DNA of 52,907 nucleotides, the filler included, from Sphacelaria rigidula (Eukaryota), in the NCBI GenBank assembly GCA_964200075.2. It is 3 parts of 3 records of this genome, joined end to end, with 100 filler letters (N's around TTAATTAATTAA, not from the genome) between each part and the next. Parts side by side here need not be neighbours in the genome. Positions count along the whole stretch, not along the records: positions 17,679 to 35,243 come from CAXNAA020001040.1; 2 more parts are not named here. The stretch is one strand, 5' to 3'. A program made the translations under genes and the position numbers. Below, piece after piece: positions 17,579 to 48,080 of this stretch (the first letter of the stretch is position 1; every line of letters starts with the position of its first letter). The notes beneath the pieces were generated by a model. That model was not told the origin of the DNA. It searched no databases and worked only from the letters and a program-made list of their open reading frames with translations.

Positions 17579-17678
17579 NNNNNNNNNNNNNNNNNNNNNN
17601 NNNNNNNNNNNNNNNNNNNNNNTTAATTAATTAANNNNNNNNNNNNNNNNNNNNNNNNNNNNNNNNNNNNNNNNNNNN
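17579..17678. other. Assembly gap with artificial TTAATTAATTAA linker
   Basis: N run, ttaattaattaa, N run; identical structure at 35244-35343. Confidence 0.95.
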
Positions 17679-18096: not shown

Positions 18097-21000
18097 CTGT
18101 GTTACCATACAGCTTCGCTCAAGATACAGGCAGCCATTACAGCGGCGGAGGCAGCCTTTCACCCCTGCGTGCGCCACCTGGGGCAAACGCACGCTGTAGC
18201 TGCAACACGGGCAGCTTTACAAAATGTGAAGTAGCGATATACTGTAGCGCGTAGCAAGGGGTAATATCCCGCGTACACGTTGGCCGCGATACAAGCGGCT
18301 GCGTTCATGATGTGGCGGACTGCATACGACAACGCGAAATTAATGCAGGACAGGAATAGGCTCAGGGTGTCACGTCCTGCGGTGTACTTTGTCACCCTGC
18401 ACCCTGCCGCTGTGCAGTGAGCAGGTAGTACCGCCACAGGCGTCACGCTGCGGTTGGTACGCAATGTCGGCTCCACACCCATAGGGTAACCTCTGTATTG
18501 GATTAAATAAAACGCATTGACTTGAATTACACGGGCGGAGCGTGATATTTTCGAGCAGCACGCACGCTAGCGCGAGCGAGATTTTCCGTGTTGCCGACGT
18601 CGTGACAGTGCGCTGTGCACTATAGCGTTGTACTCCCCTGTGGCAGGCCGTCACGGTATTGCTCCTCATGTTCCATCACGCTTTATTCGAAAACACGCAG
18701 AAAAGATACCAGCGAGTCCGTCGTCGTTGTTTTTTCGATCGAGTACTGCCACATGCTCCGTGCTGTACCAAATAGTATACCCCACCACTGAAGAAACGGA
18801 TCTGCATGATATAGAGGTCACCGTCATGCTCTGGTTATCATGAACTGTGTACGAGGCGCGGGAAGCGTAGTTTTTGGCAAGGAATGCAAGGACGCAACCA
18901 TACTGTAATACAGGAAGTTTTGATTATTAGCATGCAACACGTGATTCGAACGAGACACGAGACAAGGTATTTACATTATAATACCTGGGCGTTTCGGTAT
19001 TGACACGAGTCCACCAGTCTCTCCACTACCTACCGTAAGGAGACAGATACCACGTGAAAATACAAAATAAGTTACGGGCAGATCTTCATTTTAGAGTAGA
19101 AGGGCCCAGCCGAGACAACTCGGGTTTCACCGCCGAATCCGAGACCGCAACGTCACAAACATCGAAATAATTTGAAATTGGAAGCGCCCTGAACACAGGG
19201 CAGTCTAGTATGTTGAGTTCTTCCTACCGTCGGCAACGGTTACCGAGGGTACCGGAGATTCGTCTGTACAGAGATGAGAGTTTCGGGCCACTCAAGAATG
19301 TCACTGTTGTTGAACCTGCTCCTGTAACACCGTCTCCATGTCACAGGTGCATACAAGTCATCACCCTGCACACACAACTAGGATTGCTTCCACAGGTTCG
19401 GCCAACATAGTGAAGATACGCCCCCTGTAGAGACCATGATTTCTGCGCACATCACTTTCAGACGACTGTTCGCGTGTACTCAAGGCATTTGGGTGCCTTT
19501 TCAGGCGCCAGAGGGAGATTTTGGGAAGTTGTTGAAATGAAGCAAGAGTTTTCCGCGCAAGCTCGATGCCCTGGACAATGTTGTCCATCAGCAATTAATG
19601 TGTGCACAGTACTTCAATTTAGATCAATCTTGATCATGCGATCGCTTGATTTGCGCTCAAGACACTCGACGAAACAAGCCAAGGCTCCCCTACTCTCGCC
19701 CACGATTCATGACGAAAAACTGTAAAACCTTAAACAAACGTACCCAATGTTTCCACCTCTTGTGTATCCCAGCCCCCACTCTTTGCACAGCTGCCTCACT
19801 CTTTCCTCATACGAAATCAGTACATTCAAACAGGTGGTCGAAAGCGAAGCGGCTCAATCATGGTAACTAGCACACGAAGATCGCCCCTTGATAATTAACA
19901 AGAGCGAAAAAGTAAACTGCACAATGAAAAAAACGAAAAAACAAATCTAGCTTACACCTTAATCGGCAAAAGCAGAGACACGCACGCCACCTATTTCTAC
20001 TCCTTTCCACCTCCCGCGCTTGGTTGAGGTTAACAAGGAGGAGTAGAAAAAAACATTTGCAAGAGTAGACAAAACACATACGCGGGTGCGTACACACAGG
20101 ATCTCGACCGTCTGCTGCCTATTTCTACTCCCTCCGACCTCACGCGCTTCGTCAGAGAGACGGGAGCAGAAACAGAACACGTACACGAATCACCCGTTCG
20201 CTGCTCGTTTGCCCGCGCCTGCCCAACGAAAACAGCGAACGACCCAACCTTTAGTGTGAGAACAAGTATCATGAGACATGGAGAAACCGCGATTATTCAT
20301 CACTCTTCTCAGTATTTTGATACCCACGGAACAGAAATGAACCACCCTTCCGCTTCCGAGCGGGTGTGGAGACCATGACATTTTGCTGGAGATCAAAGGT
20401 GCATCCACCACCATACCCCATCACCGTGCAGTGCCAACGGGAGGTACTACAGAATGTAACCGTCGCCGACACCACCACCAACAACACCACCACCACCAGT
20501 TGTTGAGACACGTATCATTTGCTCGAGCTCTACCCTTGTATCTTATTTTCTCGTTCTTTTTAGTTCCATTAGTGGACATTCGAAGTTCCCAGTTCAATGA
20601 AAACCTGACGAAGTTCCTTCTTTTTTTCTTTCCGTCGTACAAATTTTCTCACTTAGTCATGCTCGGGTGTAAAGGTGAAGGCCCAATCCAGGTGTGACGG
20701 CTAATGATCTCTACTGCAGAAAAAAAACATAACTGGATCCATAGGCATGGACAACAGTGAGGTCATTCTACCGATGGATAGCATATCGCCACAACTTTCA
20801 AGAGTGTGCCTCCGGGAAAAAAACAGCCGAAAACGGCCAAAATAAATGCATCAATCGACACCAAACGATTTCAGCTACTTCGCAGCTGGGCATTCCTCCT
20901 GAAGCGCCAGGTAGTCATCAAATAACAATCGTACTCCATCACATAATAATCGTACATCATAACATCATCCCCCGCAGCATGACAAGCGAAAATCAATAAT

Positions 21001-21645
21001 TTTCCGCCAATGAGATACATCCTCTGCAAGAAATCCAGCCAATGGAAAACGACAGCTATATTTCCTGTCCACCTCTGCCTACTCGTGATGAATGATGGCG
21101 CGGATACGGTCCACCCGGACCTGCGCCAATAGTCTCCCAGCGAATAGCCATCCCAACCGATGCACGTAGACCCTTTTGAGCACAAAACGACGCAAAGTGT
21201 TCGTATGAAAACCAGAGAGTATATCCTACCCCTCTCCGCTGCCTTACATGGGCATCGAATAGGACAAAAAGTTTGTTAAGGTTCTTTGAAGTTGAAAATA
21301 TGTGCGTTTGCGGGTGCACACGCAGCCCGTAAGACCGCAGTCTCGCAAGGCAAGATAGTCTGCCTCCTCCCTGCATTTCTTCCGTATAAATCTTCCAGCC
21401 GCATAGCGTCCGTATCGAGCTCAACATCGCCACAGAAACCCCCTCTTCTCTCGTTATACGCTGCGATACGGAAAAAACGCCTCCTCCCACAAAAGCACGA
21501 CATTGCCAAGCGAGGCCAATGTAAGTGACGCCACAACATCCACCATCAGTACCGAACCGACAACAACAAGCACTCCTTGCAACAATAAAATCTGAAACCC
21601 AGACACAACTACACACACACGGCGCCACCGAACCACCACATCGCA

Positions 21646-21834
21646 TCACTGCGATGATCCTGTCTTGAGAGTGCGCAGGCGAGACCCACGCCACCGCATA
21701 CCCTCCGCGGAGGCATTCGGTAGACCGACGCAACCGCCCGCCGCCATAGATCCGGAATGGGGTGGGTACTGGTGTCGGCCCACGCCAGTCCCTACTCCAG
21801 GTAGACCGGCGTGGTGGCGTCTCGCCTTCCACAC
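21646..21834 (-). CDS. Last exon: end of the SANT domain (VWKARR) to the stop codon
   Basis: Acceptor cctcag|GTG TGG AAG continues ...YYYCIWKFAPQYQ in phase 0; ends at TGA. Confidence 0.75.
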   Translation of the reverse strand: MWKARRHHAGLPGVGTGVGRHQYPPHSGSMAAGGCVGLPNASAEGMRWRGSRLRTLKTGSSQ

Positions 21835-24800
21835 CTGAGGATAAACGGGTCGATCGGTGGGTGGGTGCGGTGAGTAGGAAGGTGGGTGCGGTGAGTAGGA
21901 AAGTGGGCGGGGTGAACATGTTTACCGTCGAGTCAGTTCATGAAAATTTCAACACTTGTACCCAAAAGCGAGTACACGTGCGGAACATAAAACCTGTGTG
22001 CATTCCATTGGAGGGTTTTCACACCGAGAGTTGTTACTGTGTGCTACTTGGTGTGCTCATGGCGGGATGGGAATGAGCCTCAAATAACTCTCGGTAAGAC
22101 TGAGACGCTGGTTACGGAAATCGAGAGGCAGAAAACATTCGAACATCCAGTCTTTTTACATTTCGTCTGCAATGGTTGAATGGACAACCACAGGACAGAA
22201 AGTGCAACACAGTATCTCCACGTCTGTTGTCCCCATGAGCCTTAGCTGAGTCGACAAAAAGGCAGACGCTCAACCAGTAAAATTCTTCAAGACAGACACG
22301 AGCAGACCCAAGCACACCTGATACTGGGGAGCGAACTTCCAGATGCAGTAGTAGTACTCCACCACGCGCTTTTTGCTCCACCCAAGCGTACTCTGTACAG
22401 CATTCAGATCCCGCCCATACCGCATGAACGCATCATTGGCCTGCTTCGTATCTTCTCGGCTGAAACCCTGCGCATCCGCGTCCCTCCCAGCGCTCCCCGC
22501 CCCACGACCAGCCCCTCCAACCCCCCCCGCCACCGATGAGCGCGACCCTCCAGGCAAAGTCACGGCACCAACCCTGCCGCCACTAGCATCACTGCCACCA
22601 CTGCCGCCGTCGTTGCTGCTACCAACCGCAACAAATGACGAGGACGACGACGCCCCGCCACGCCAAGGCAACGCCGAGCGGGCAGAAGTAGGCTCGATCA
22701 ACCTCGCGGAAGAACTCGAAGGCTGCTTCTCCACGCGAGAATGGCGAGTTGTCCGAATGCCTAGCCCTTCCACCTGGATGCCCAGTCGAACCGTGAGCAT
22801 CTGTGCAGCCCGGTCGACATCGTGTCTACACGTCTGCAGCACAAGCATCGCTTTCTCAAGGTGCGCCGGTGCCACCCGCTCGAGTAGAGTGCCGTCCCTA
22901 TCCCACATCGCCTTCTCCAACCGCGCCAACCGTTCGCCAGCTGCGGCGGCGACAGCATCGTTATTTTTCGTTCCATCCGCTGCGGCTGTTGCTGCGGGTT
23001 CGACCCCTCGAGGTCTCGGCCCCGCGCGCGGGTCCCACACGAGTTCCGCCACATCATCCAAGGACAGATCAGGGATAGGACCCTTGCTATTTCCAATTTG
23101 CCGTGATGCGCCTTCACGAATAGTGTTCCTATCACCGTTTGTTGTGCCGCGGTCGCCACCACTTCGAGGCACAACCAGGGACACATTCGGCGTAACAGCC
23201 GCCGTAGGAAGTTTGCGCTTCCGATTCGCCGTGGCCTCGCTCGCGGGGATCACCAAGGACTGCGACATCGTCGAGGGTAGACTCACCGTTGCACTTGTAC
23301 TGCAACTACTACCTTCATCACTATCAACTGCCGATCGCGTGTCGACCACCTGTCCTGCTGCTTCAGGTTTTTCATCCACCCAACCCGGCACGGGTGCAGC
23401 AGAGGTCGAAGGAAAGGTTGGAGATGGCAAAGCAGGCGATGAAACGCGCATACTTTCAACGCCGGCGGACGCAGCTTGAACGGTTGCGATCGGTGTTTGT
23501 AGCAGCGAATGTACTGGTCCAGGGACAGGAGAAGCAGAAGGACCGAAAGCAGATGTTTGTAACATTCCCTCCCCATCACCAGCCGTAGTATTCACCTTGG
23601 ACGAGAACAGATCACCTGGTCCGTACCCGTACCCGTTGCCTGAAACCGCGGGGACTGGGGTCTCATTTGTTTCCAAAGGTATTTCGTTTTGTGTCCCGAC
23701 TTTTGAGCACTGCTTGGACGGCGAACGAGGCGATAGCATGGGCTTGATACCGATAGAAGAACTCTGACTAACATCGGCCACAGGTGTATCGACTCTAGCT
23801 TGCGTGGCTGCTGCAACCGTGGTCCCCTGCGCCAGTATACCTGAGAGCTTGTTGTTCACGCTCTCATCATCGTTGTTGCTAACATCGAGATGATCTTCAA
23901 TTGACGGCAGTACGGTTCTGGCGTGCACGGTCATTCCTGCGAAGGAACCAGTCGAAATGGATTCTGTTTTCCTGTGCATGACAGCATCGATATCGCTCGA
24001 GCCCTCGATAACTTCACCTTCGGACTCTTTGCCCTGTTGATCAGTAATCGATGAGACAGCTAGTCTTTCTTCCGGATTCGGGCTCAACGCTTCACTAGAT
24101 GTCTTTGTGTCCGGAGTCTCAGGATCCGTGTCAGGCAGCGTGTTCTGAGACGCCGTGCTGGCCGAGGGCTGTTCGACGTTTACTACCTGGCATACAGTGG
24201 TGGCCGCGCTGCTAGCGATAACCGCTCCTTCAACAATCCTCATGTCTCTGGCGGAACTAGATTCCTCGATGTCCGCAGTTGCATTATAGTTTCCACTTGT
24301 TGTCCCCCTACACGCATCAGGTGCAACGCCTGATGAGGAGTGATTGTCCGGTCCCACCGGTGACAGCGTAGCGGTGTCTTCTTCCACTGAACCACTCTTA
24401 CATTGCCCTACTGATGGAGCAGCAGAAACTACAGCAGCAGCGGCTGCAGCGGCTCCATCCCCACCACTGTTACCACCACCGCCACGAGCGGTGTAAGCGG
24501 CGCCCTGCTCGCATTTCATTCCATCTTCCAGCTTTCCGGGTGTGCTATGGTCATCGCTCGGACTGGCCGGTCCGGCAGAAGGCAATACAACCGCCCCACA
24601 TCGCCCGCCTGCCACTTTTTCCACTGTAGCCTTAACTGCTACACAGATGACCTCCGCCACATTACGTGCTCCTTCGTCCACTGCACCTAATGTATTTTTA
24701 GCGATATCTGAGCCAGTCGCTGGAGGAGCTACCGGGGGTGGAGGGCGCCACGGTCGCGACGGCGGGGGCAACGGGGGCAACCGCGAAACCTGGTGCTCTT

Positions 24801-27800
24801 CACCGATAAGAGGCTCGTGATACTTTCCTGCCATCTGTAGTCTGCGTCGCGCGAGCAGGGCCTTGTCCCACTCACTTCCCCCTCCAGCCTGAGCACGATA
24901 ACAACCAATCGAATGAGACGTTCGGGTGTTAAGAGTGTATGCATTTCAGCCCTGACGCTAATATGCCGCATATTCAGAGTCACTGCTGCTCTGCGCAATT
25001 TGTAAAAATCGACAGTTCCAACGAAGCAGCACACACCTGTCACCAGATGATGGCTTTCAACACAACATCCCTCATCTTTTTGACACCCATCGACCATATT
25101 TTCCACAAACGCAGCCATCCGTGGTGAGACTAAAGGGTTGCACTTAACACAGGAGGTCTATCCATCGTTAGAACCACAAAGCAAGCCAGAAGTACGCACC
25201 TGCACCTCAACAGTACAATCACGGGACACCAAACAACATCAGCCACGGGACCGGTCGGGAACAAGGAACTTTGAAACTGAGTACTGAGCCAATTTAGTCG
25301 GCGCTTCACATACCGTGCCAGGCAGCCCGAGTTTCCCCTGCAGCTGCCCTTGCAGCTGCTGAGCAAACATCTTGTTTCGCGGAACCCTCACGGGCAGCCC
25401 TGTCGGAGGCGGTGGGATGTAGCCGTCCTTAATGGGGTTCAGCGGGGTGTCCGCTCCATTCATGTACACGGCTGCTCGGTTGTAGGCGTACGACGCGTCG
25501 TCCACTGCGCAGGAAGTTGTCAATGGGTGATGCGTCATAGGGGTACAGGATCCAATGGGGTTGGCGCGGGGCGCTCGTGGCGGAGGTGAAAGCACAAGTG
25601 GAAGGAAGCAACGTCCGTGAGGGCTACAACTATCTAGCTTTCAAACAGACAGGCTGGTGCGGTAAGCGAGGAGTTGAGGTCAGCTCACGAGAGCTTGGTA
25701 GCTCACGAGACGCGGTCGTGAAAGGCTGAGCAAATGTATCAAGAGCCTGCGGGCGTCTCCGCTCGGTGAGGTGGTCCAGGGGACATATTCCAGATAGGAG
25801 CAAGGAGCTAAGGCAGACCACTCACATCTTTCAAAGAACCCCAAATGCCGCTTCTTGTTCCCCCACTGCATCTCTGCTCGCCACTGGTGAAAGCTCCGGA
25901 CCACTCCCTGCAACGCAGAGAAGCATCGCAACGCACAAGAGAGAAGGACACACAACAAGGAGGATATTCCTCGCGCGGCTGTAACTCGAGGCTATCCAGT
26001 CAAAATAGCGATAGAACTCTTGGGCCGTCATTAGGACCACGCTCCTGTGAAGCGGCGTTTGACAATCAAGGGCCTGAGAGCGCAAGAAGAGGGAAAGCAC
26101 ATCATTGTAATCTTCTCTGCAGATGCACACCTTCACCGTGTTCCCGTCAGCCCCGACGCCTTCGACTTCCACTTGCTCGTCTGCGGAAAAGTTACACACA
26201 GCCGCGTCCCCAAACAGGCTCAAAGCCTGCACAGCGAGCCGAAACGAGCAGGGGTAACAAGTGGGACACGGCGACGGTTTCCACTCAGATCACAGAAAGA
26301 GCCACGGACGTGAATAAACCAGATGCAATGCGCTGTACAAAGAGTGCCTGCAAAACCTGTCATTGGTGGTTTGTCTCTCAGCGTTACCGGAGGCGATAAT
26401 ATGACAGAAGGAAGGCTCATTGAGTGCAGCGAGTGGTGCCTTTTGGCCTAGTAACCGAGGAACGTTCGACACCTTTGCTGCCCGCTGCCACGCACTGCGT
26501 CATCGGATAGGCCGCAGCAATAAAGTCTCTATCTCGTAATCAGGTTGACAAAAGTTCGGAGTCTTTTCCAACCGAACTCCGCCTAAACTAGAATAGAGCA
26601 TGGCCGCTGTTCCTCGCTCCCCTCTACCCCAAATAGCGGAAGGGGCACGGCGAGTGGCAGACCAACCCAAAGGGAGAGTCACTCCCCACACCCCTTTCCC
26701 GCCCCCCGGGTGTGCTGACGCCCGAAACTTCTCCCTGTCGCCGCTGCACACAAAGCCATATCCCAACGGCCGTACCTTACGGTCGTACGCCCTCGCAGCA
26801 TCCTCAGCAGTCGGATAGAGTCCAGCGTCCACGGCTTGGTTTTTGTAGATCACTATTGCTCGGAATGCATCGTTCTCTGCCTTAACGCCGTGGTAAATCG
26901 TGGGTCTCTCCCCTAGTGCAGGCGATGCTGCTCTGCTCCCATCGTCCGCCGTGCGCCTCCGCTTGTTCAACTTCAGAGAATATGCAGGACCATTTTGGAC
27001 GCGTGCACGAAAATGCGAAAAAGCCATCGCTTGTTCAACAGACACCCTTCCAACACAAGCGTGTACTATTTCTGTTCTGTGTCACCAAGATATGCGAGGC
27101 AAATATGAAGCATGCATCTTGTCGTTCATTTCTTCCACGTGGACCAACCGTGTGTCTATGTACTTGCACTAGATCGAGGGCGAGTCTGTGTAGACCTTGA
27201 AAATCGACGCATGTCCTGTCCAACGGCATTCTAACATGTAACACGGCTACAGCACGCCTCATCTCGAAGACGCCAAATAGAATTTCGTTGGCAAGGCCCA
27301 TGAGGCTATCCGCGTGTCTATTGACTGCCAAATTTGTGACTGGTGCAACTTTGTAGTGTTTCGTATGGCGTGCCATGCGAGGTTTCCGCGCAGATCCGAC
27401 AGCGTTTGGTACTCGGTACATGCACCGATCGTATCTCACCATGTAGACTTCTCTCCAAGCCAGTGCTGGTTTGGGGGGGAACTGGAGCCATGACCCTTGG
27501 GGCAAATACACTACGCCAACATCGTGGGAGGAGGCGAGGTCCACAGCCCAGGGGGAAAAACAGAGCAATCGGCTGAGTTTATGTGCCTCGATGGCCAGTA
27601 GTATTTTTTGTTGACGGTGTCCGTTGTACCTATGCGTGCTGTGTCTCGCTCGGCATGGTATACATAAATACACACTATCAATTACATCACACCTGTCGTG
27701 CGGTGAGCTCTGCGGTGCACGCCGGGCATATCCACAGCTCCTCGGTCGGTGTCTGACCGGATTGGATAAAGGGCAACGAGCAGGATGACCAAGGGCGGGG

Positions 27801-30045
27801 ATGAGGGCCTAGATGCATGATCCACATTGAGTATATTCGTGCACATAGCCCAGCCCCGAATATTAAAACAGGGAAACGAAGTGCAAGAGTTCCAGGCGTG
27901 TGTATAGAAGCACCTCTCTCTACTCGGTGCAACGGTATCTGGGAGCAAGTGGCGCCTTGGCCTTCTTTGAAAAAACAGTTCCAGCCACGTGTGTCAAAAC
28001 AGGGGTGCCGGGGAAAGGATGATGGAGGGTTGTTTGAATTGCCCTACTCGCATATGTTCCATGAACGATGGCCCTACGTACGGGAGTATGCTACAAGAGA
28101 AATATGGCTAAATAGTAGCTGGTCCTGCTTTAGCGCAGGGGTCGCCGATTGCCCAGGTATCCCGTAAAGCATCGACAATACCCCCACTGAATAGCACTGT
28201 GGTATTAAATATATGATATAGAGCACACTTAATATCAAGCCATTCAACCGGCACTTTGGTTTGCTGAGGTTCCATCTGTTTTCTCTTGTTCCAGTCATCC
28301 CATCTCGCCGGCAACGCCACACGAATTACCCAATGACCCAACACCGGGCGCAAAGTTTGTCTTTCGCTTACCTCGCTTAGCTTGATACAGCCCAAGTGAT
28401 ATACCTGGACAGCGAGAAACGGCAGACACGTCACGGGCAGGGGTGGGGAGAGGAAATGAAGGATCGGTTGAACACTACACGGAAGCTTTGCTCGTGCTAG
28501 GGGCGCAAACACCAGGACCTGAACATATCCAGACGTTACCGAACGTTGAACTTTCGTGAGGTAGAACTGTGAACTTTATTATTCAATGTCAACGTCACCA
28601 TCGCTGCATGTCCATTACAGGGGGGAAACAGCTACGCAGCGTGGAGTCACTACCAAATATTATACCCCTTTGTGGACAATCAGCGCTCGTCAGTACAGTA
28701 CAAGAGCACAGCGATTCGTCCCTGTACGTCGTGGTCCTCTAAAGGTGTGAGCGACAGAGTATGCATACCATACATACGAGCTGTTTGCTCCTTGTAACCC
28801 AGCTGCCGAGATTATTATGAAAAACGTCTCCAGCGGTGCACTAGAGATCTACGATAATGTCCGCGACGGTGTAGCCCTACTGCCATAGCTACGGTCGAGC
28901 TGTAACGAGAGGATCGAGACCGAGACCGCTGATTCACCGGAGCCCACATCATACAGAGGCGGGCCAGCCGTCCTCGGTGGAATACGATCACTACGGGCAA
29001 CATTCGTCGGTAGTACACGGAAATAAGTCGCTCACCAAATTGCAGAAATCGCAGCAGAGAAGGGGGCCGCCTTTGTCGCACACCTCACAGATGTCGTTGT
29101 GGTCTGCCAGAAAGAGTCCCAGCAGAGCAAAGCAGGCGCCGGAAAGTAAACCGATACCGGATGAAGGTCACGAGGTTAGTCGATCGTATGCATGTGTGAG
29201 GCATCTGTGTTTTCTTGATGAATGCCACGACTTGACACTTGGTCGAGAGCGTTGTGGAGTCGTAAGCACCGTTACGACGGAAGATGATGCGGGATTTTTC
29301 ACCGGCCAGCCAAGTGTCGTTCATTGTTGCCGCCTTTTCCCTGCTGGCTTTACTGAATAGCAGGAACAGTAGGGAGGACTACTAATCCCACAGCGATCGT
29401 ATGGCATCCACGAGGGCGCGCATAGACTACGGGCATCGTCATGCCCAGCTAGAGCAGCTCTGCCAGCACGTCCCCGACCACCCATGTACCCGCATGACGG
29501 TATGACCATAGCGGTAATGCAGAAACCAAACCAACCAGAGCGGCCGCCGTTGGGTCTGACAACAGCAGCGTAGACACACATCCCTCTCTCGATCGCTGTC
29601 CTCGCAGAAAACTGTACACTACAAATGCGGCGAAATCTCGCTCGCGCGCTCTACCTCCGTCGCTGTATCTCGCTTGCCTATACCCTCATATTGCTGCCAT
29701 GAACGTACCTCCTGTATACGGCTGCAACATGACCGTAAACTCGCCCAGCTTCGGGTCGACGATCCGGACGCGCTTGCGAGCAGGGGTGGACTTAGTCGTA
29801 GCGCCCCCACCTCCACCGCTACTGGCACTGCTACTGGCACCATTGTTCCTCTTGACGCCGCCGCCGGGGATGCCTTGTCCTACCGAACTCTCACCGGCGG
29901 TGCCCCCGCTGCTTGCACCAGCGCCGCCGGCCCCTCCTCCTCTTTCTCCGGCGGCGGCGCCGGTGCCACCTTTGGCGCTGGTGTTGGCAGCCTTTTTGCG
30001 GGGCACAGATGAAGAAGCTGTGGGTGGCGTCTTCGGTCGTAACGC
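21646..30045 (-). CDS. Multi-exon chromatin regulator / transcription factor: PHD - AP2 - AP2 - ELM2 - SANT (about 1355 aa, start uncertain)
   Basis: Manual model complement(join(21646-21834,22318-24834,25314-25504,25826-25907,26131-26226,26776-27046,27258-27481,27693-27752,28372-28404,29036-29103,29709-30045)) = 4068 nt. All junctions are in phase and the domains reconstitute across them. One junction needs a GC donor. A possible first coding exon is ATG CGC ACC|gtaggc at 30250-30258. Confidence 0.85.
22318..24834 (-). CDS. 2517-nt exon: split ELM2 domain, long low-complexity insert and SANT/Myb-like domain
   Basis: ctacag|ATG acceptor and CAG|gtgtgc donor. Motifs: PLIGEEHQVSRLP, ELVWDP, EKAMLVLQTCRHDVDRAAQML and FSREDTKQANDAFMRYGRDLNAVQSTLGWSKKRVVEYYYCIWK. 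Confidence 0.9.
25314..25504 (-). CDS. Exon: helix of the second AP2 domain (DDASYAYNRAAVYMNGADTPLNP)
   Basis: gcgcag|TG acceptor (phase 1) and ACG|gtatgt donor. Confidence 0.8.
25826..25907 (-). CDS. Exon: beta strands of the second AP2 domain (GVVRSFHQWRAEMQWGNKKRHLGFFER)
   Basis: ttgcag|GGA acceptor and AGA T|gtgagt donor; AP2 GV...W.A......HLG.F pattern. Confidence 0.85.
26131..26226 (-). CDS. Exon: end of the first AP2 domain (ALSLFGDAAVCNF) and linker
   Basis: gtgcag|GCT acceptor and AAG|gtgtgc donor, both phase 0. Confidence 0.85.
26776..27046 (-). CDS. Exon: first AP2 domain (YHGVKAENDAFRAIVIYKNQAVDAGLYPTAEDAARAYDRK)
   Basis: AP2 signature TAEDAARAYD; AAG|gtacgg donor; acceptor less certain. 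Confidence 0.85.
27258..27481 (-). CDS. Probable exon between PHD and AP2 (FPPKPALAW...FGVFEMR) with a GC donor
   Basis: ctccag|TTC phase-0 acceptor; ATG AG|gcgtgc restores phase with the next exon; open frame. Confidence 0.5.
27693..27752 (-). CDS. PHD exon 3 (TPTEELWICPACTAELTARQ)
   Basis: ggtcag|ACA acceptor and CAG|gtgtga donor; W.CP.C motif. Confidence 0.85.
28372..28404 (-). CDS. PHD micro-exon, 33 nt (VYHLGCIKLSE)
   Basis: gtccag|GTA acceptor and GAG|gtaagc donor; H..C zinc ligands. Confidence 0.85.
29036..29103 (-). CDS. PHD exon 1 (DHNDICEVCDKGGPLLCCDFCNL)
   Basis: tggcag|AC acceptor and TTG|gtgagc donor; C..C..GG.LL.CD.C motif; absent from the supplied ORF track. Confidence 0.9.
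29709..30045 (-). CDS. N-terminal Gly/Ser-rich exon with basic NLS-like motifs (PRKK, RKRVR)
   Basis: ttccag|GCG acceptor; GGA G|gtacgt donor in phase with PHD exon 1. Confidence 0.8.
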
Positions 30046-30985
30046 CTGGAAATTTCGCAAACGGCGGCAGCATGTCGGTAAGTTAAGAGAATTAGCGACA
30101 GTAAGGGATGAGAGTGATGCTGATGGAGTATAGGGGGGGGAAAATAGAGCGTGACATTTACACTCTTCAAGTCGACATTAACAAACTATCATACTCAGTC
30201 GCACTACTCGGGCCAACTTGATTTCACACGAGGTTCTTTACGTGCCTACGGTGCGCATTGGACACACAAGATCTTCGACCAAGGGAGGCCCCAATCAGGT
30301 GGTAAATCCTTAACTGAAGGGCTCTAGCCTTTCCATAGTCCGGGGAAATACGACCAGCTGTTTTTCGGTGTAGGGAGGTACGCGAGGCTACCAGAGGCAA
30401 CGATAGTTGTGGAAGTCCCAACAACAGGTGGTACCGGACCATCACCCGACCCAACACCACCACAACGCATCGGCACAATAACTAGCCCCCTGTCCCGATG
30501 AGGACGCAGTTCTGGTATCAAACTGGTCACGAGGACACATGTTAGCCATCCATAGTTCGCGCAAAGGCGGCGCGCGCGTGATTATCAGCGATAGCACGTC
30601 CGACGTCTCGCGGACGACCGCGGGCGCACGTGGGCGCACACGAAAATTCACATATGTAGAGTCTGAGTTGAGGTGCTCAAAGTTTTTTGCCAACACATAC
30701 CACTCACATTTTTAGTGTCTGTCGGTGGAGCACGCTGAGGGAGCGCAGGGCGTTGGTGAGTCGGGGCGTGCTGGACCCCCGAATCCATCCTGAGCGCCAT
30801 TTATGGCCTAGATATATCACAGAGGTCTTATCGAATGGAAACAAGACTAACGAAGCGATCACTTCGTACCACACTAGGATCGTGTTAGGGTAAATCATTC
30901 AGTACCCGCAATCCACGGACGACTAGGGGGGCCAAGGGGTAGACGAGAAGTAGGGCACCTCTAGCACTACAAGACTGAGATAGAG

Positions 30986-31210
30986 ATGCCGTTCACTGCA
31001 AGAAATTCTCTACTTGCACTGGCAAGCCTGACTGCTGTGTGTGGGCTGAAGTTCGACCTTGGCCTTACCGCCGAGAGCAGTAGTAGTTGTTTGTCATTGA
31101 AGGACGCAGACATTTGCCGTGCCGGCAAGGATGACGAGACCGGGGAAAAGTGTGTTTGGTGCACGTGCAAGGCTGTCCCTTCTGAGTGCTTGAGCTCATC
31201 GCTAGCGAAG
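30986..31210 (+). CDS. First exon of a putative secreted Cys-rich protein; downstream exons not identified
   Basis: MPFTARNSLLALASLTAVCG resembles a signal peptide; Cys cluster C...C...CVWCTCKAVPSECL; AAG|gtatgt donor at 31211. Confidence 0.65.
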
Positions 31211-32265
31211 GTATGTTCGTCTATGTGTGTTTGTTTGTATCTGCGACCATCAGTGCATACGTGCGTGTGTACGTGCTCACACGCGATCGTGTCTGGTGTG
31301 TTCACACGACTCGGATGCCGTAGCATCATCTGAGAATTGATACAACCGATCAAGGGAGACAGGTAAAACCGCTGTGATTCTGGCGGAAGTACGCAATATC
31401 CGGCCTTTCCGGAACTCAAAAGCAAGGAGAAATTTCAATTGTGGTGAGAAAACTGGTATCTGTTGTGGGAGTCAACTTTGTGTACACTTAAGGGCTTCCA
31501 TCAACAACTTGAACAACGTTCGATGACGGGGTGAAGGGCGCATGTAAGCTACTGCCATCACAATTGCTTTGAATTATGCAGTGGAGTGCACCAACTTTTC
31601 TGACTGTCCCAACTCAAACTGGGTGTAGTAGTTGTGGTACGAACGAATGCCCATCCCTCGTGATCATAGTCATACCGTAGTGGTGTACGGCTTATACATA
31701 GCTACGGTGATGCAGCTGCTTAGGTTCCCCGCGCGTAATAAATCAGTGCTGCCAGATGATGGAACGACATCTGACATCTGACAGAAATCGAAATTGTTCC
31801 GAAAATATCGGGAACGTGAAAGGGTCGGACGAATCATCGCTGGTTCGAATAAACAAAGCCACCATTTCTGAAGCCTGTTAACTCGAAAAGAGAGAAAAAC
31901 ATCGACCGCGGGTCGAGAACATCCTGTGCTACTTTTGCGCTCCTCCACGTGCCTGGAGTGCGCATACTTGGGGTGCAATGCCGACAGCAAAGCCCAAGGA
32001 TTGATGCGTACGGTGCGAGTCAATCTCACTAAAGGCAAATGATTTTTAGACAAATCATTATCCGTCCGATCCTGTCCGACCCTCGAACCTTCACTTTCGG
32101 CACCCAAGGAAAGTTTTCCTGCGAGCGACGGGATTTAGGCGCCGCTACGCGATGCAATCAACGAAAATACGGGCCCTCCAAACGTATCGATCCGTACCGG
32201 TGGAATTAGCGACCTTGCACCACTTCAGACCAGAGCGCGATCCTAGACTTTTCGCTCGAGGTTTG

Positions 32266-35243: not shown

Positions 35244-35343
35244 NNNNNNNNNNNNNNNNNNNNNNNNNNNNNNNNNNNNNNNNNNNNTTAATTAATTAAN
35301 NNNNNNNNNNNNNNNNNNNNNNNNNNNNNNNNNNNNNNNNNNN
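35244..35343. other. Assembly gap with TTAATTAATTAA linker
   Basis: N runs around the linker. Confidence 0.95.
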
Positions 35344-39337: not shown

Positions 39338-41313
39338 CCCTCCTTTCTCTTTTTGTTTTCTTGATTTTTTTTAACTATCTAACTNNNNNNNNNNGTTGAT
39401 GGGGGGGCCTGTTTCTAGTTTTCCTGATTTTTGCTTGTGGCGCTTTTTCATGTTTCTTTCCTGTCTCCCCCCCCCCCCCTCACCCCATATAGTTAATGGT
39501 TTTATGACTATGGTATGCAAGATCATGAGTACACTTCCCTCACCCCTCATTTTTTCTTCAAGGGCGAGGGGAAGATACTTGTTCATGTCTGTGCGTTTTT
39601 TCGTCGCGCCTTCGCTCACGTCACGCTGCTCATATGTACCGCTCGTCTTGCGGACTCTTTCTGCGGTCTTGTTTTTTTCTATTTTCGTCGCTGTTTTCCG
39701 TTTTTGTTTCTTGTCACCCATTCATGTACTCCGCCTGCTCATGTCGTATTCGTTCTCGATGCCGTTGCCTTCTGTTGTTCCGTTTCCATCTTCCCCGCGT
39801 GCGGTCGAATGTTGATGGGCGTCATGATGTGTGTGTGTGTGTGTGTGTTTCATTTCGACCCCTTCGTTTTTCTGCCCGCGTTTCTTTTTTTCTTCAGACA
39901 CCGCTCCATCTGGCCGTCGCAAAAGGACACCCGAAGGTGCGAGTCGATACTCGTCAGGTGTAACGTCCATTTTTTATTTTTTTTATTTAACGTTTCCTGT
40001 GGAGTTTTTTGTTTTCCCTCTCACCCCTATATTTTGCTGTACATAGCACGCACTGCTGTCCTGTTTCTTGTTTTCGTTTTTAGATAGACTCGGATATCTC
40101 AGTACAATAGTTGCTTTGTTGTTTCGTAAGGTGGCGTTTTCCGTTGTTTTCTGGACAACTAGGAAAGGAAAACAGAGCAGTTTAGTTGAGACATTTGCGC
40201 TGAATTTTCGCTTCTACGTGACGACTGCGCATGTGGGAGGACCCATTGCGAATTGCCTTAGCTTGCGCGCAAACAATGACAGTGAGGAGACAAAAGTCCG
40301 CGGCGGAGATCGGGATAAGCTCAGTTGTCGTTTCCTTCGTTGCCTGTCTTGGAACACGAACCGCTCTTTCATGGCAACTGTAACGGATATCCAACCCAGC
40401 ACAGATACAACGCGTTTTTTATTTCGGCAGGAAGATTAAAAACGTTTTTTTCTGGCAACCGGCGTGGCTGTTCGGCCGGCCGACACAAGACTACAACAGT
40501 GGTAGTCGCGGTCTCCGTCGTTACACGAAAACAAAGTATCGCCCCCGCCGCCACAACGTCTTGTTGGACATTTCCTTCATGCGTTCAACTAATTTCTTCT
40601 CGCGAATGCACCTCGAAACCCCCCCCCCCGGAAAACAAAAACAGGCGGTGCTGGTCCTTGTTCAAGCCGGCGCGGACAAATACATCGAGAATAATAAGGG
40701 CGAAACCCCGCTACACCTGGAATTGAGCGAACCGGTCAAAGCCGCGCTCCACGCCCAAGCGGCCCCCTCCCAACCCCCTTCGCACGCCTCTGACGATGAA
40801 AGCCAGCAAAGGCCGAACCCGACCGCCGCAGCCGCCGACCAAAACCAGGGCAGTCTTGGGCGGCAGGAAGGCGGGCAAGAACAGAAGGAGTGTGGTGATG
40901 TTGAGTCGACTGCTGATGCTGGCGAGTCGGAGCCGATGTCATCGGCAGGGATCGCGGGAACGGCATCGGCGGGTGCCGGCGGGGTTAGTGTCGCAGGGCT
41001 CGAAAGTGTTGTGACGCAGCCGGCGGCTGTCGTCGTCGATGGAGTTGGGGGACTGCCTACTGCGGGGGATGATGTTGCTGAAGCGGGAGTTGTTGGAGAC
41101 GGGGAGGCAATAGGAGCGGGATCGGAAGCGGCTGGGGGTGAGACTGAGGGACAGGATGGAGAGAAGGCGCAGTCTGGAATGAGCCTTGCTGAGCGGCGGC
41201 GAAAAAAGAGGAAGTTGATGGAGGGCGGTGGCGGGGTCAGCTTGTCGCATTCGGGAGGGGACGGGAAGGAAGTTGAGGGAGAGGAGGCGAACGGTCTTGA
41301 GCGTCTTGAGTGA
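35534..41313 (+). CDS. Ankyrin-repeat protein with an acidic low-complexity tail and basic NLS-like motif (5' part not resolved)
   Basis: Exons ~35534-35669 (DGFTPLHFCAQAGCAEGCQLLLEAGADVNA..TKK|gt), 39898-39936 (ag|TPLHLAVAKGHPK|gt) and 40645-41313 (ag|AVLVLVQAGADKYIENNKGETPLHL...RRRKKRK...stop). The phase-0 joins rebuild consecutive ankyrin repeats. Confidence 0.85.
36876..37108 (+). mobile_element. Degenerate CACACC MITE containing a nested 3' SINE fragment (36932-36991), inside an ankyrin-gene intron
   Basis: cacaccgtgg...tccagggtgt ends; internal tactgcgt and ctattatctattgc are shared with the 15414 copy; the SINE tail gatgggacgacaac is flanked by the duplication actgcgtg. Confidence 0.7.
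39385..39394. other. Assembly gap
   Basis: Run of 10 N. Confidence 0.95.
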
Positions 41314-45682: not shown

Positions 45683-48080
45683 TCACCTCCGACAGTTTTT
45701 CCACGGGCTGTTATCGCACACCCACTCGTCGTCATGGTAGCGGTCATTGTACGAGCGCTTTTGTCCACGATTGCTACTGCTGTATTCATCGCTCGTATCG
45801 GCCACGTTCTCCAACGGAGGAGGGGTTGCTGCGCGGGCAGCAGCCGCCCCTCCGGATCCCCCGTGCGTCGGCGACGAAACCTGTACTGTCGGCGCCCTGG
45901 CGGCTGCCTCCAGTTGCTCTTTCAAACCTCCGGGAAAGTTGAGCTTGGCTCCTTCGGCAAAATGTTCCACGGCGGCATGATCGTAGGCACGCGCTGCGTC
46001 GAACTCGCTGTCGAACACGCCAAGGTACTTTTGCTTGCGCCCGATGTAAATCACCGCGCGCCATTTGCCCGCGCGCGTGATGCACACGCCTTTGAAGCGG
46101 GACTGTCCACGAGGACCACGACGGCCCGATGCCTGAACGCGGGGTGGACCTCCGGCGGCCGGCGACGAGACCGGTCCGAGTGACGGAGAACTGTTTGCGG
46201 AGCTGGGAGCAATAGCGGCAGCGGCTACGGCTGCGAGGGTGTCCACGCCGCCGGGGTGCTGTTGCGCGGGCACGCCGGCGAGCATGCGCTGTGGGAGGGT
46301 GGCCAGCAGGCAGGCAGCATCGGCCGTGCTGCCGCTGTAGGCCGGACCCCCGCCCGCCGCCTCCGCGCCGCCCCGGCGGTGGTGCTTGGGCTTGGGCTCT
46401 GCCGCAGCGTCGTAGGTCGGTGACTGGTAAAAGGAGCTGGAGCTGGAGGGACTGTAGGACCTACCGCCGCAGCTGGGGTGTAGGGGGGTGCGGTACATGC
46501 TGAGGTTGGAAGAGGACACATGTTCAGCGTGGTCAGTCTTGGGTCTCTTGGACGGGCTGGAATTACCAACACCCCCTGCCCCAGCGACTCCCGCGGAGTT
46601 ACTCGTGCCACTGGCACCAACCAGCTCCTCCTGCGCACGAAGCTCAAGATACACCGCACCCAGCAGGTTCTCCCAGTCAGACTTCTTGCGGAGAGGGGAC
46701 TTGCTAGCAACCCCAACGTCACGCGCCGTTCGGGTGCGGGCGGCCGCCGGAGACGACGCAGCCGCTGTGTATTTCTTGACTGCGGGGGTAGTGTCGTCTT
46801 CAACAGAAATTACACCCTCTGTTGCCGAACCCCGCGACCGATCTTTGCCCCACCCGCCGCTTCCACCACTGGTCTGCGAGTCGTTGTCGTTGTTGGCGCC
46901 AGAAACTTGGCAGGAGATCGGGCGGGTGGAGTTGGAGCGGGGAATCCGCGTCGGGGCCGGCGCTTCGGGCTCATCGTAGGGGAACGATTCCGTCACGTTT
47001 GCATACCCGGGCCCAGCGGCTCCGCTGCGGGGGTACGGCGAAGCTGTCTGGCCGGCAGTGGAGAAGGCTCTCGGGGACGGGGATTGGCGCTGTGAGATGC
47101 TGCGTCCCTCCGCTCCCAGATATCGTGCTGTGTAGGGCATCGAGCCGGTGGGGAATCCAAATGACCGGGTGTCCATGCCAGGATCGGACGGAATCTTGGG
47201 CAGTATTGATGAACTGAGGGCATGAGGGCACGCAGGAGGATAGAGGGGAGGGGGGGGGGGGGGAAGGTGCCAAGGTGAGCATGGTGACGCGAGTGAATGA
47301 CTTCTGACTGGGTATCAGTGCGGTTTGAGACGGCAAGTTTGTGGTGACATGGAAGAGGGCGCGAAGGCAAAAAGTACTGATGTTGGCGTCACATGCATCC
47401 TGCTCAAAGAAACAGTAAAAATGCTGAATATGTCATCTCGAGCATGTGTAAACATGATCAGCTGAAGGGATACACGTGGAGCAGCTTTATCTACCAGATC
47501 GGCACAAAAACCGAGCTCAACTTGAAACATGTACAGCTGTGTCCACCCCCTGTACTACTGCAGCCGGGCCGTGGCGGTGGTGGCGGAGGCTGCGGCGCAG
47601 GGGCTGGTTGTGAATTCGAACAAGAAGTCACAACTATTTGGCCTGGCGGGTACCAAGGTCATCCTGGTGCATATTGTTCCCCGCACTCTCCGCTGTAGAA
47701 GTACCCCTAGAGAATACAATCGTACCCCGAGACACTTTAATCAATCGGTGAGAAAAAAGATTGTACCGAGGCCAGACCTCGGACCGCAAATTAATGGAGG
47801 TCTTCTCGGAGGACGTACAGGTCATGTATCCACGGCGCATGGGTTGATTAGGCCCGGGGGGGGCGACGCCCGACCAGGAGAGCACAGCACGCTTTTTTAC
47901 CCGTCGCTCCGACAAGGAGAGAACACGAATTTCAAACGATGATGATTTTCCATTCATTTTCGGTGGTTGAGTTTTACTTCTGGTGTCTCCAAGAAAGCAG
48001 GATTAGCCAGCGGAGAGAAATAAAAACGAACCTGAGGAAGTTGTTTTGGAGGCTCACCTCTCTGCGATGAGGGCGGTCAT
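45683..48080 (-). CDS. AP2/ERF-domain transcription factor (single AP2 domain, about 517 aa)
   Basis: Main exon 45683-47213 contains SRFKGVCITRAGKWRAVIYIGRKQKYLGVFDSEFDAARAYDHAAVEHFAEGAKLNFP. The probable first coding exon 48058-48080 (gccATG ACC GCC...GAG AG|gtgagc) joins in phase 2 to cctcag|T TCA TCA. An alternative start is the ATG at 47176. Confidence 0.9.

Follow-up and report, generated by a model that had tools for sequence, protein, structure and literature searches.

Known systems and the locus

Class I histone deacetylases (HDACs) are held in several animal complexes by scaffolds with a paired ELM2-SANT module. In MTA1 and MTA3 of the NuRD complex (4BKX, 5ICN, 2CRG), the ELM2-SANT pair sits on HDAC1. 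In the SANT domains of HDAC corepressors, basic and aromatic residues hold an inositol phosphate at the HDAC interface. Some animal ELM2-SANT proteins also possess a DNA-binding domain of their own, as in the GATA finger of MTA and in TRERF1/ZNF541. The subject of this report is a gene of the brown alga Sphacelaria rigidula whose product joins a PHD finger, two AP2 domains, an ELM2-like region and a SANT domain in a single chain. The gene lies in CAXNAA020001040.1 (assembly GCA_964200075.2), on the minus strand of a stretch of 52,907 nucleotides made of three genomic parts joined by filler; this whole stretch is called the window, and all coordinates are given on its + strand.

MTA1 and MTA3 are the best solved match of the C-terminal module and its SANT domain, in sequence and in structure. 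The helix ahead of the SANT aligns weakly, but in order, with that of MTA1, and as in MTA a DNA-binding domain stands beside the ELM2-SANT module. Unlike MTA, the brown-alga protein has neither a BAH domain nor a GATA finger, with the AP2 pair and PHD finger instead; its ELM2 is Pfam-negative and split by ∼570 residues, and a linker of ∼108 residues precedes the SANT. With CoREST (RCOR1) the likeness is to the first SANT domain (8vpq_D, Z 6.0, root-mean-square deviation (rmsd) 1.1), whereas a second SANT and the LSD1-binding linker are not seen in the brown-alga protein. Its PHD finger is close to that of PHF21A/BHC80 in the LSD1-CoREST-HDAC complex. In animals, separate proteins serve as PHD reader, ELM2-SANT scaffold and DNA binder (REST); the brown-alga protein has all three in one chain.

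The tandem AP2 pair, with its short linker, resembles that of the double-AP2 factors of plants (WRI1, ANT/AP2 subfamily; 7WQ5). These plant double-AP2 factors have no PHD finger and no ELM2-SANT module, and the brown-alga AP2 domains have diverged too far to be recognised by the Pfam model. Where plant AP2/ERF proteins act as repressors, EAR motifs and TOPLESS provide an indirect route to HDACs. Among green algae, protein P0024 of Cymbomonas tetramitiformis combines several AP2 domains with a PHD finger, both Pfam-positive, the latter 41% identical to the brown-alga PHD. Its domains run the other way, from AP2 repeats to a PHD finger at the C-terminus, and Pfam shows no ELM2 or SANT in it.

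In two reports on apicomplexan MORC complexes, the proteins that co-purify with MORC include ApiAP2 factors, ELM2 proteins and HDAC1, each as a separate polypeptide (PMC11620747, PMC12891473). As described there, another lineage of the stramenopile, alveolate and rhizarian group also combines AP2 binders, an ELM2 protein and a class I HDAC repressively; in the brown-alga protein, AP2 and ELM2-SANT are fused. A literature search on ELM2 with 'AP2 domain' and HDAC returned Plasmodium MORC complexes only, with no AP2-ELM2 fusion, and one on ELM2, AP2, PHD and SANT gave no such fusion, by title or abstract opening, among the papers listed. ELM2 was not found paired with stramenopile or with Ectocarpus in the literature (supplements not covered). 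An earlier note on this DNA had not recognised the architecture from plants or animals. As far as the searches reach, the version with AP2 and PHD, and the stretched ELM2, are new within the literature searched; the principle is not, since animals already have ELM2-SANT proteins with their own DNA-binding domain.

Gene structure

The locus is one expressed, spliced nuclear brown-alga gene. The evidence comes from contigs of three runs that resemble complementary DNA (cDNA), namely X1 and X3 from study P1 and X8 from study P2, which were classed by their behaviour, no run being recorded as RNA. Ten stretches are spliced out in these contigs, with ends that read CT..AC on the + strand and hence GT..AG in a minus-strand gene; all 10 introns are GT..AG once small joint shifts are applied. 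Nine joints are present in all three runs and the 5'-most in two of the three, whereas the DNA run X5, which covers the entire stretch unbroken, has none of the 10. The joined exons form a single open reading frame (ORF) of 1304 amino acids with 11 coding exons:

30708-30836, minus strand: exon 1, part of the 5' untranslated region (UTR) and 31 codons, with the ATG at 30800 (coding 30708-30800); joint 30045/30708 in X1 and X3
29709-30045, minus strand: exon 2, an N-terminal region rich in Gly, Ser and Ala, its basic stretch ARKRVRIVDPKLGEF kept in the orthologues of the alignment
29036-29103, minus strand: exon 3, part of the PHD finger
28372-28404, minus strand: exon 4, part of the PHD finger
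27693-27752, minus strand: exon 5, part of the PHD finger
26776-26970, minus strand: exon 6, part of AP2 domain 1
26131-26226, minus strand: exon 7, rest of AP2 domain 1 and start of AP2 domain 2
25826-25907, minus strand: exon 8, part of AP2 domain 2
25314-25504, minus strand: exon 9, end of AP2 domain 2
22318-24888, minus strand: exon 10, an uninterrupted 2571 nucleotides (nt) with the ELM2-like parts and most of the SANT domain
21646-21834, minus strand: exon 11, last coding exon, with the last three SANT residues (21826-21834); joint 21834/22318 in X1, X3 and X8
20000-21645, minus strand: 3' UTR; X1 record 1 and X3 record 5 span 20000-21829 unbroken and run past 20000

An in-frame stop lies just 5' of the ATG at 30800, and the stop codon ends at 21646. 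The 3' UTR measures at least ∼1.9 kb, with X1 record 1 reaching ∼312 nt beyond 20000; the contigs past the stop may represent a long 3' UTR or an overlap with a neighbouring transcript. The surrounding DNA is intron-rich, with a G+C content of ∼50-57%. X8 differs from the window at 20853, 20946, 21356, 23820 and 24826 (two A>G and three T>C changes), where X1, X3 and X5 match the window; these differences are probably strain polymorphism rather than editing.

The large exon has an identical counterpart in an NCBI protein, P0002 (1199 amino acids, 'unnamed protein product [Sphacelaria rigidula]'), whose N-terminal residues are the same as the product of exon 1. P0002 equals the transcript model minus four in-frame pieces of 6, 17, 52 and 30 amino acids within 22318-24888. 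The transcript contigs retain all four, so the pieces are judged to be, probably, spurious introns predicted in low-complexity sequence.

The splice model of the earlier note, which placed 11 exons within 21646-30045, is borne out by GT..AG joints in three runs from two studies. The count of 11 coding exons is right, and the span begins and ends exactly at the end of the stop codon and the end of exon 2; only 10 of the exons fall inside it, exon 1 lying upstream. The PHD and AP2 domains are fragmented among ORFs, as the note had seen, the former being spread over three exons and each of the latter over two or three. The raw minus-strand ORFs contain PHD pieces, two AP2-like stretches and an 891-residue ORF with a SANT-like end. 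Pfam scans of these raw pieces (14 pieces, and 8 pieces at E <= 10) gave no PHD, AP2, ELM2 or Myb, only spurious matches below cut-off, because the domains are interrupted by introns.

A single contig in each run links the PHD finger, the AP2 pair and the ELM2 helices across eight introns (X1 record 2, 3518 nt). The SANT domain is on a second contig, after an assembly break of 7-61 nt (22484-22546) that no single contig of X1, X3 or X8 crosses. The linkage of the SANT is therefore drawn from the open frame, the annotated protein P0002 and the orthologues, and not from one contig. Could the long ORF be an artefact that merges neighbouring PHD/AP2 and ELM2/SANT genes? The unbridged interval would fit, as would several Ectocarpus and Logan models that hold the C-terminal half only, yet such a merger is very improbable. 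The single contigs already join the PHD finger to the ELM2 helices, the break falls in a Gly-rich repeat inside an open 2571-nt exon, and both halves occur together in P0002, in P0019 of Undaria, in P0039 of only 516 amino acids and in P0038 of 575, with P0018 of Scytosiphon carrying them up to the ELM2 helices. The Ectocarpus protein P0013 begins in the middle of AP2 domain 2, and is thus a truncated gene model. The union of a PHD finger, tandem AP2 domains and an ELM2-SANT module in one protein, as the earlier note had it, consequently stands on transcript contigs, orthologues and the compact P0039, the direct transcript link ending at the ELM2 helices.

In all three cDNA-like runs the contigs break at 22484-22546 in a Gly-rich, GC-rich repeat, with loose ends of X3 and X5 nearby. 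Repeated words in the sequence probably caused the contigs to break during assembly.

The PHD finger and the AP2 pair

The modules of the protein follow one another along the minus strand:

27693-29103, minus strand: PHD finger, residues 149-189, over exons 3-5 (PF00628)
26131-26970, minus strand: AP2 domain 1, residues 222-275, exons 6-7 (profile A3, BLASTP)
25314-26226, minus strand: AP2 domain 2, residues 293-345, end of exon 7, exon 8 and into exon 9 (profile A3, BLASTP)
24772-24813, minus strand: ELM2-like N-terminal motif PLIGEEHQVSRLPP, residues 411-424, near the start of exon 10 (alignments)
23059-24771, minus strand: variable low-complexity insertion of ∼570 residues in poorly conserved columns, including a conserved basic RKRKLP patch
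22789-23058, minus strand: ELM2-like C-terminal part, residues 996-1085, a DDVAELVWDP motif followed by three helices
22318-22464, minus strand, with the last three residues at 21826-21834: SANT domain, residues 1194-1245 (profiles, AlphaFold2 (AF2), VIA-align)
21664-21699, minus strand: C-terminal motif MRWRGSRLRTLK, kept in Ectocarpus, Undaria, Choristocarpus, Chrysoparadoxa and P0037

The PHD finger of P0002 passes Pfam PF00628 with 27.8 bits against a cut-off of 24, and its Cys4-His-Cys3 pattern is visible (C..C, CC..C, H..C, C..C). A phmmer search against solved structures matched 92 sequences at E <= 0.01, the best being CHD4 (1e-16), PHF21A/BHC80 (4.5e-12) and PHF12 (2.4e-10), followed by ZMYND8, NSD2, CHD5 and AIRE. 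Most of these PHD fingers bind histone H3 unmethylated at lysine 4 (H3K4me0) and belong to HDAC complexes; the H3K4me0-reading subclass (CHD4, BHC80 and AIRE type) is further marked by the lack of an aromatic cage. Judged by sequence, the nearest solved relatives are thus of the H3K4me0-reading subclass. TAF3, whose PHD finger reads trimethylated H3K4 (H3K4me3), also matches at 1.6e-7, so the specificity of the brown-alga PHD is a prediction.

Profile A3, built from the N-terminal regions of four brown-alga sequences, supports the AP2 pair. It matches 34 sequences of solved structures at E <= 1, and the top five are all AP2/ERF: WRI1 (5.2e-8, a single stretch over both copies), ERF096 (2.1e-5, copy 1), AtERF1 (9.1e-4 and 1.6e-3, copy 2 at 9.1e-4) and TEM1 (2.2e-3). 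Both copies therefore match solved AP2/ERF DNA-binding domains significantly at the level of the sequence profile. In BLASTP, residues 214-320 match the Coccomyxa AP2 protein P0021 at 4e-19; P0021 itself scores 77.3 bits with Pfam AP2, and AP2 domain 2 matches its Pfam-verified AP2 stretch at 5e-6.

One result counts against a DNA-binding AP2 pair: Pfam AP2 (PF00847) gives no match on P0002, P0018, P0019 or P0020, nor on P0002 at E <= 10. The AF2 model of the N-terminal 307 residues has a mean predicted local distance difference test (pLDDT) of 37.7, from an alignment of four sequences, too low a value to judge the AP2 fold of a three-stranded sheet packed on one helix. The Pfam result would suit a relic of an AP2 domain associated with mobile elements or endonucleases, which would have lost sequence-specific binding and left targeting to the PHD finger and partners. 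Such domains exist: the homing-endonuclease-like P0048 consists of GIY-YIG, NUMOD3 and AP2, and Atlas contains an HNH/AP2 cluster (a lead only). A relic is nonetheless improbable, for few parts of the protein are as well conserved as the two AP2 domains, the N-terminal region of four brown-alga genera shows 59-73% identity and long stretches without change, the matches to DNA-bound plant AP2/ERF structures range from 5.2e-8 to 2.2e-3, and a Pfam scan of the full protein reveals no nuclease domain.

The ELM2-like region and the SANT domain

The whole-length alignment A1 gave mostly low-complexity matches to solved structures, and trimmed alignments were used instead: A2, with 12 sequences of the C-terminal region, and the wider A4, which includes compact homologues. 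Profile A2 has 18 matches among solved structures at E <= 10, the top 14 of which are the SANT domains of MTA3 (0.012), NCoR2, MTA1 and RCOR1. A4 matches MTA1 (5icn_A) at 9.5e-5, MTA3 at 2.7e-4, NCoR2 at 3.3e-3 and RCOR1 at 0.052. On these profiles, the SANT domain is nearest to the HDAC-binding SANTs of MTA1/MTA3, NCoR2 and CoREST. Modelling is consistent with this: AF2 on A2 yields three SANT helices with pLDDT 83-95, the first Foldseek rows for the C-terminal model are MTA3, CoREST, MiDAC and MTA1, and the best VIA-align chain is 4bkx_A, MTA1 with HDAC1 (Z 6.4, rmsd 1.8, 48 residues, 27% identity). The alignment to MTA1 has YGRD for YGKD, retains YYY and WK, and places one extra residue ahead of WK. 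The same spacing before WK occurs in P0046, a protein with canonical ELM2 and Myb domains (Pfam 84.4 and 84.3 bits, respectively), which the A2 profile matched at 8.4e-4 when run against 1.84 billion library proteins. Among the named clusters of Atlas, the C-terminal segment comes closest to 'REST corepressor 2' (score 0.88, with 175 features in common), a lead only.

The ELM2-like region has two parts. In the N-terminal motif, the columns G, P, G, Q, V, S and P are conserved at 90% or more in the brown-alga alignment, and the motif also aligns with compact homologues; by eye only, it resembles the residues with which the ELM2 match of Pfam in P0046 opens (INVGSEFQAELP). The sequence PL(I/V)GxxHQVSxLPP directly follows AP2 domain 2 and is nearly invariant in brown algae beside a hypervariable region. 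P0042 has VGDKYQATRLPP, nearer to the canonical ELM2 motif (I/V)xVGxx(Y/F)QAx(I/L)P, and in both P0042 and P0039 the ELM2 motifs stand at canonical spacing. For the C-terminal part, hhalign aligns A4 with P0046 residues 332-469 at a probability of 96.5% (E 8.2e-10, 129 in-order columns), in the order LVWKP motif (LVWxP), helix, SANT. The helix LEKAMLVLQTCRHDV.. aligns weakly but in order, by HMMER, with the MTA1 helix immediately before the SANT, and AF2 on A2 predicts three helices at positions 40-99 with pLDDT 78-91.

The brown-alga module differs in its proportions from the compact form. The distance from the N-terminal motif to VWDP is ∼570 residues in the Sphacelaria protein and ∼20 in P0039, and the linker between ELM2 and SANT is ∼108 residues and ∼27 residues, respectively. 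It is inferred from these sequences that brown algae added two disordered insertions, one of ∼570 residues in ELM2 and one of ∼108 before the SANT, to a module that was ancestrally compact.

Does such a module hold an HDAC? The alternative is that the PHD finger and AP2 pair are as described above, and that the C-terminal helices and SANT make up a chromatin module peculiar to this lineage and without HDAC binding. It might then be a histone-tail SANT or one that couples to a remodeller or demethylase, and the protein could be an activator or a context-dependent factor. A number of results weigh on this side. Pfam ELM2 (PF01448) has no match on P0002 at E <= 10 and none on 12 family members; Pfam Myb_DNA-binding (PF00249) has none on P0002, P0013 or P0014 at E <= 10; and Pfam scans of 14 library matches found ELM2 in one (P0046) and Myb in two. 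Two of the three hhalign runs against P0046, those with the narrower profiles A2 (92.5%) and compact-only A5 (72.7%), aligned the SANT alone. The gap of ∼570 residues inside ELM2 may have disabled it, and neither Foldseek nor VIA-align gave a structural match over the ELM2 helices. For the SANT itself, none of the 91 Foldseek matches of the C-terminal model reaches E <= 0.001, the first aromatic residue is F instead of W, and in VIA-align generic Myb/SANT chains such as CDC5L come within one Z unit of MTA1, so that the fold alone cannot single out HDAC-binding SANTs. The family's SANT tail also serves another context in P0040, on a JmjC/Cupin_8 protein.

A module without HDAC binding is nevertheless unlikely, if still to be taken seriously. 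The best solved matches of both profiles are HDAC-binding SANTs (MTA1/3, NCoR2, CoREST) and not SANTs of the Ada2, ISWI or Myb type, the LVWxP-helix-SANT order is aligned with a canonical ELM2 protein, the YG(K/R)D, YYY and WK positions are common to MTA1, and the N-terminal motif is conserved amid a hypervariable neighbourhood. The complete ELM2-SANT pair of the earlier note accordingly survives for the SANT, which profile and fold support, but not in full for an ELM2 that is atypical, Pfam-negative and interrupted. Among its expected domain hits, only the PHD finger is found by Pfam; AP2, ELM2 and SANT fail there and are supported by more sensitive profiles.

Range of the family

Orthologues with the same block order are present in Scytosiphon, Undaria (JGI code Undpi1), Choristocarpus and several Ectocarpus species. 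The annotated proteins of Undaria (P0019) and Sphacelaria (P0002) include both the PHD/AP2 and the ELM2/SANT halves. Scytosiphon P0018 is a partial model that stops short of the SANT, and the Ectocarpus orthologues are truncated models. Outside the brown algae, P0039 of Chrysoparadoxa australica has all the modules in compact form. The domain order PHD, AP2, AP2, ELM2-like, SANT and RWRGSRLRTL motif is conserved in brown algae and Chrysoparadoxa. The C-terminal motif matches no known family and may be an additional interaction or localisation signal. The earlier note had suggested a stramenopile-specific system; among named sources, the architecture is seen in Phaeophyceae and Chrysoparadoxa only.

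With profile A2 of the C-terminal module, 30 proteins were matched at E <= 0.001 among 1,835,955,588 library proteins, and a homologue search with alignment A6 recovered three proteins among 8000 candidates, P0039 included. P0038 has a PHD finger at 26.0 bits, an AP2 domain at 31.2 bits (cut-off 33.3) and an ELM2/SANT region aligned in one stretch, and P0037 has AP2 domain 2, an ELM2-like part and a SANT. P0040 (580 amino acids) combines a JmjC/Cupin_8 domain (84 bits) with the family's SANT tail and its WKxxPxYQxWK ending, a fusion that hints at a chromatin module portable between proteins. P0047 (1168 amino acids) joins several AP2 domains to a SANT-like C-terminus (DUF7952 at 27.2 bits, below cut-off) and, from these matches, is a second type of AP2 and SANT fusion. 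The Atlas clusters closest to P0039 are of the PHD and PHD+SANT kinds and come mostly from oomycetes and diatoms (score 0.80), which is a lead only.

Proposed function

The PHD, SANT and ELM2-like modules each point towards repression, as far as sequence likeness can indicate. The evidence leans slightly towards a chromatin-targeting transcription factor that would deacetylate, and so repress, the genes to which it is bound. Four steps are envisaged: (i) the AP2 pair would bind specific DNA sites, in the manner of the double AP2 of WRI1/ANT-type plant factors, (ii) the PHD finger would dock on the N-terminal tail of H3, most likely when K4 is unmethylated, like CHD4 and BHC80, (iii) the ELM2-SANT module would hold a class I (RPD3-type) histone deacetylase, as in MTA1, CoREST, MIER and MIDEAS, and (iv) local deacetylation would lead to repression of the genes bound by the protein. 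The term 'silencing system', used in the earlier note, overstates what is a single transcription-factor-like gene.

A fuller version can be put forward tentatively. An all-in-one repressor of the NuRD/CoREST kind, with AP2 domains for DNA binding, a PHD finger for reading H3 and an ELM2-SANT scaffold for the HDAC, would be shared by brown algae and the lineages nearest to them, Chrysoparadoxa at the least. In brown algae the disordered insertion of ∼570 residues could serve as a regulated tether and so control when the HDAC is engaged, and gene fusion would have fixed an old partnership between AP2 factors and ELM2-HDAC. Alveolates reach the same logic of AP2, ELM2 and HDAC with separate proteins, which would point to such an old partnership.

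Other features of the window

On the + strand, 30965-31333 holds a small Cys-rich ORF with a signal-peptide-like start, spliced past 31210 and covered to a depth of 1240 in X3 and 1519 in X8. Its start and the 5' exon of the PHD-AP2 gene, which is on the opposite strand, are ∼140-170 bp apart, so that a divergent promoter may serve both. A 543-residue open frame occupies 45683-47314 on the minus strand, where the G+C content of the window is highest (0.657 at 46001-47000). Runs of N at 17579-17678 and 35244-35343, each a pair of 44-N blocks with 12 bases between, and 10 N at 39385-39394 are read as masked stretches or scaffold gaps; the first two fall at the joins between the parts of the window.

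Significance

Complex multicellularity arose independently in brown algae, only a few of whose regulators are understood. Here, one chain is predicted from its modules to bind DNA sequence-specifically and to read histone tails, and probably to recruit a deacetylase as well. Pfam misses three of the four modules, so factors of this kind are probably under-counted in the transcription-factor inventories of stramenopiles. The compact Chrysoparadoxa protein and the expanded brown-alga form together constitute a natural experiment in the extent to which disordered insertions can lengthen an ELM2 domain without loss of function. If the proposed function is true, the gene would offer a convenient way into the study of targeted gene repression in brown algae.

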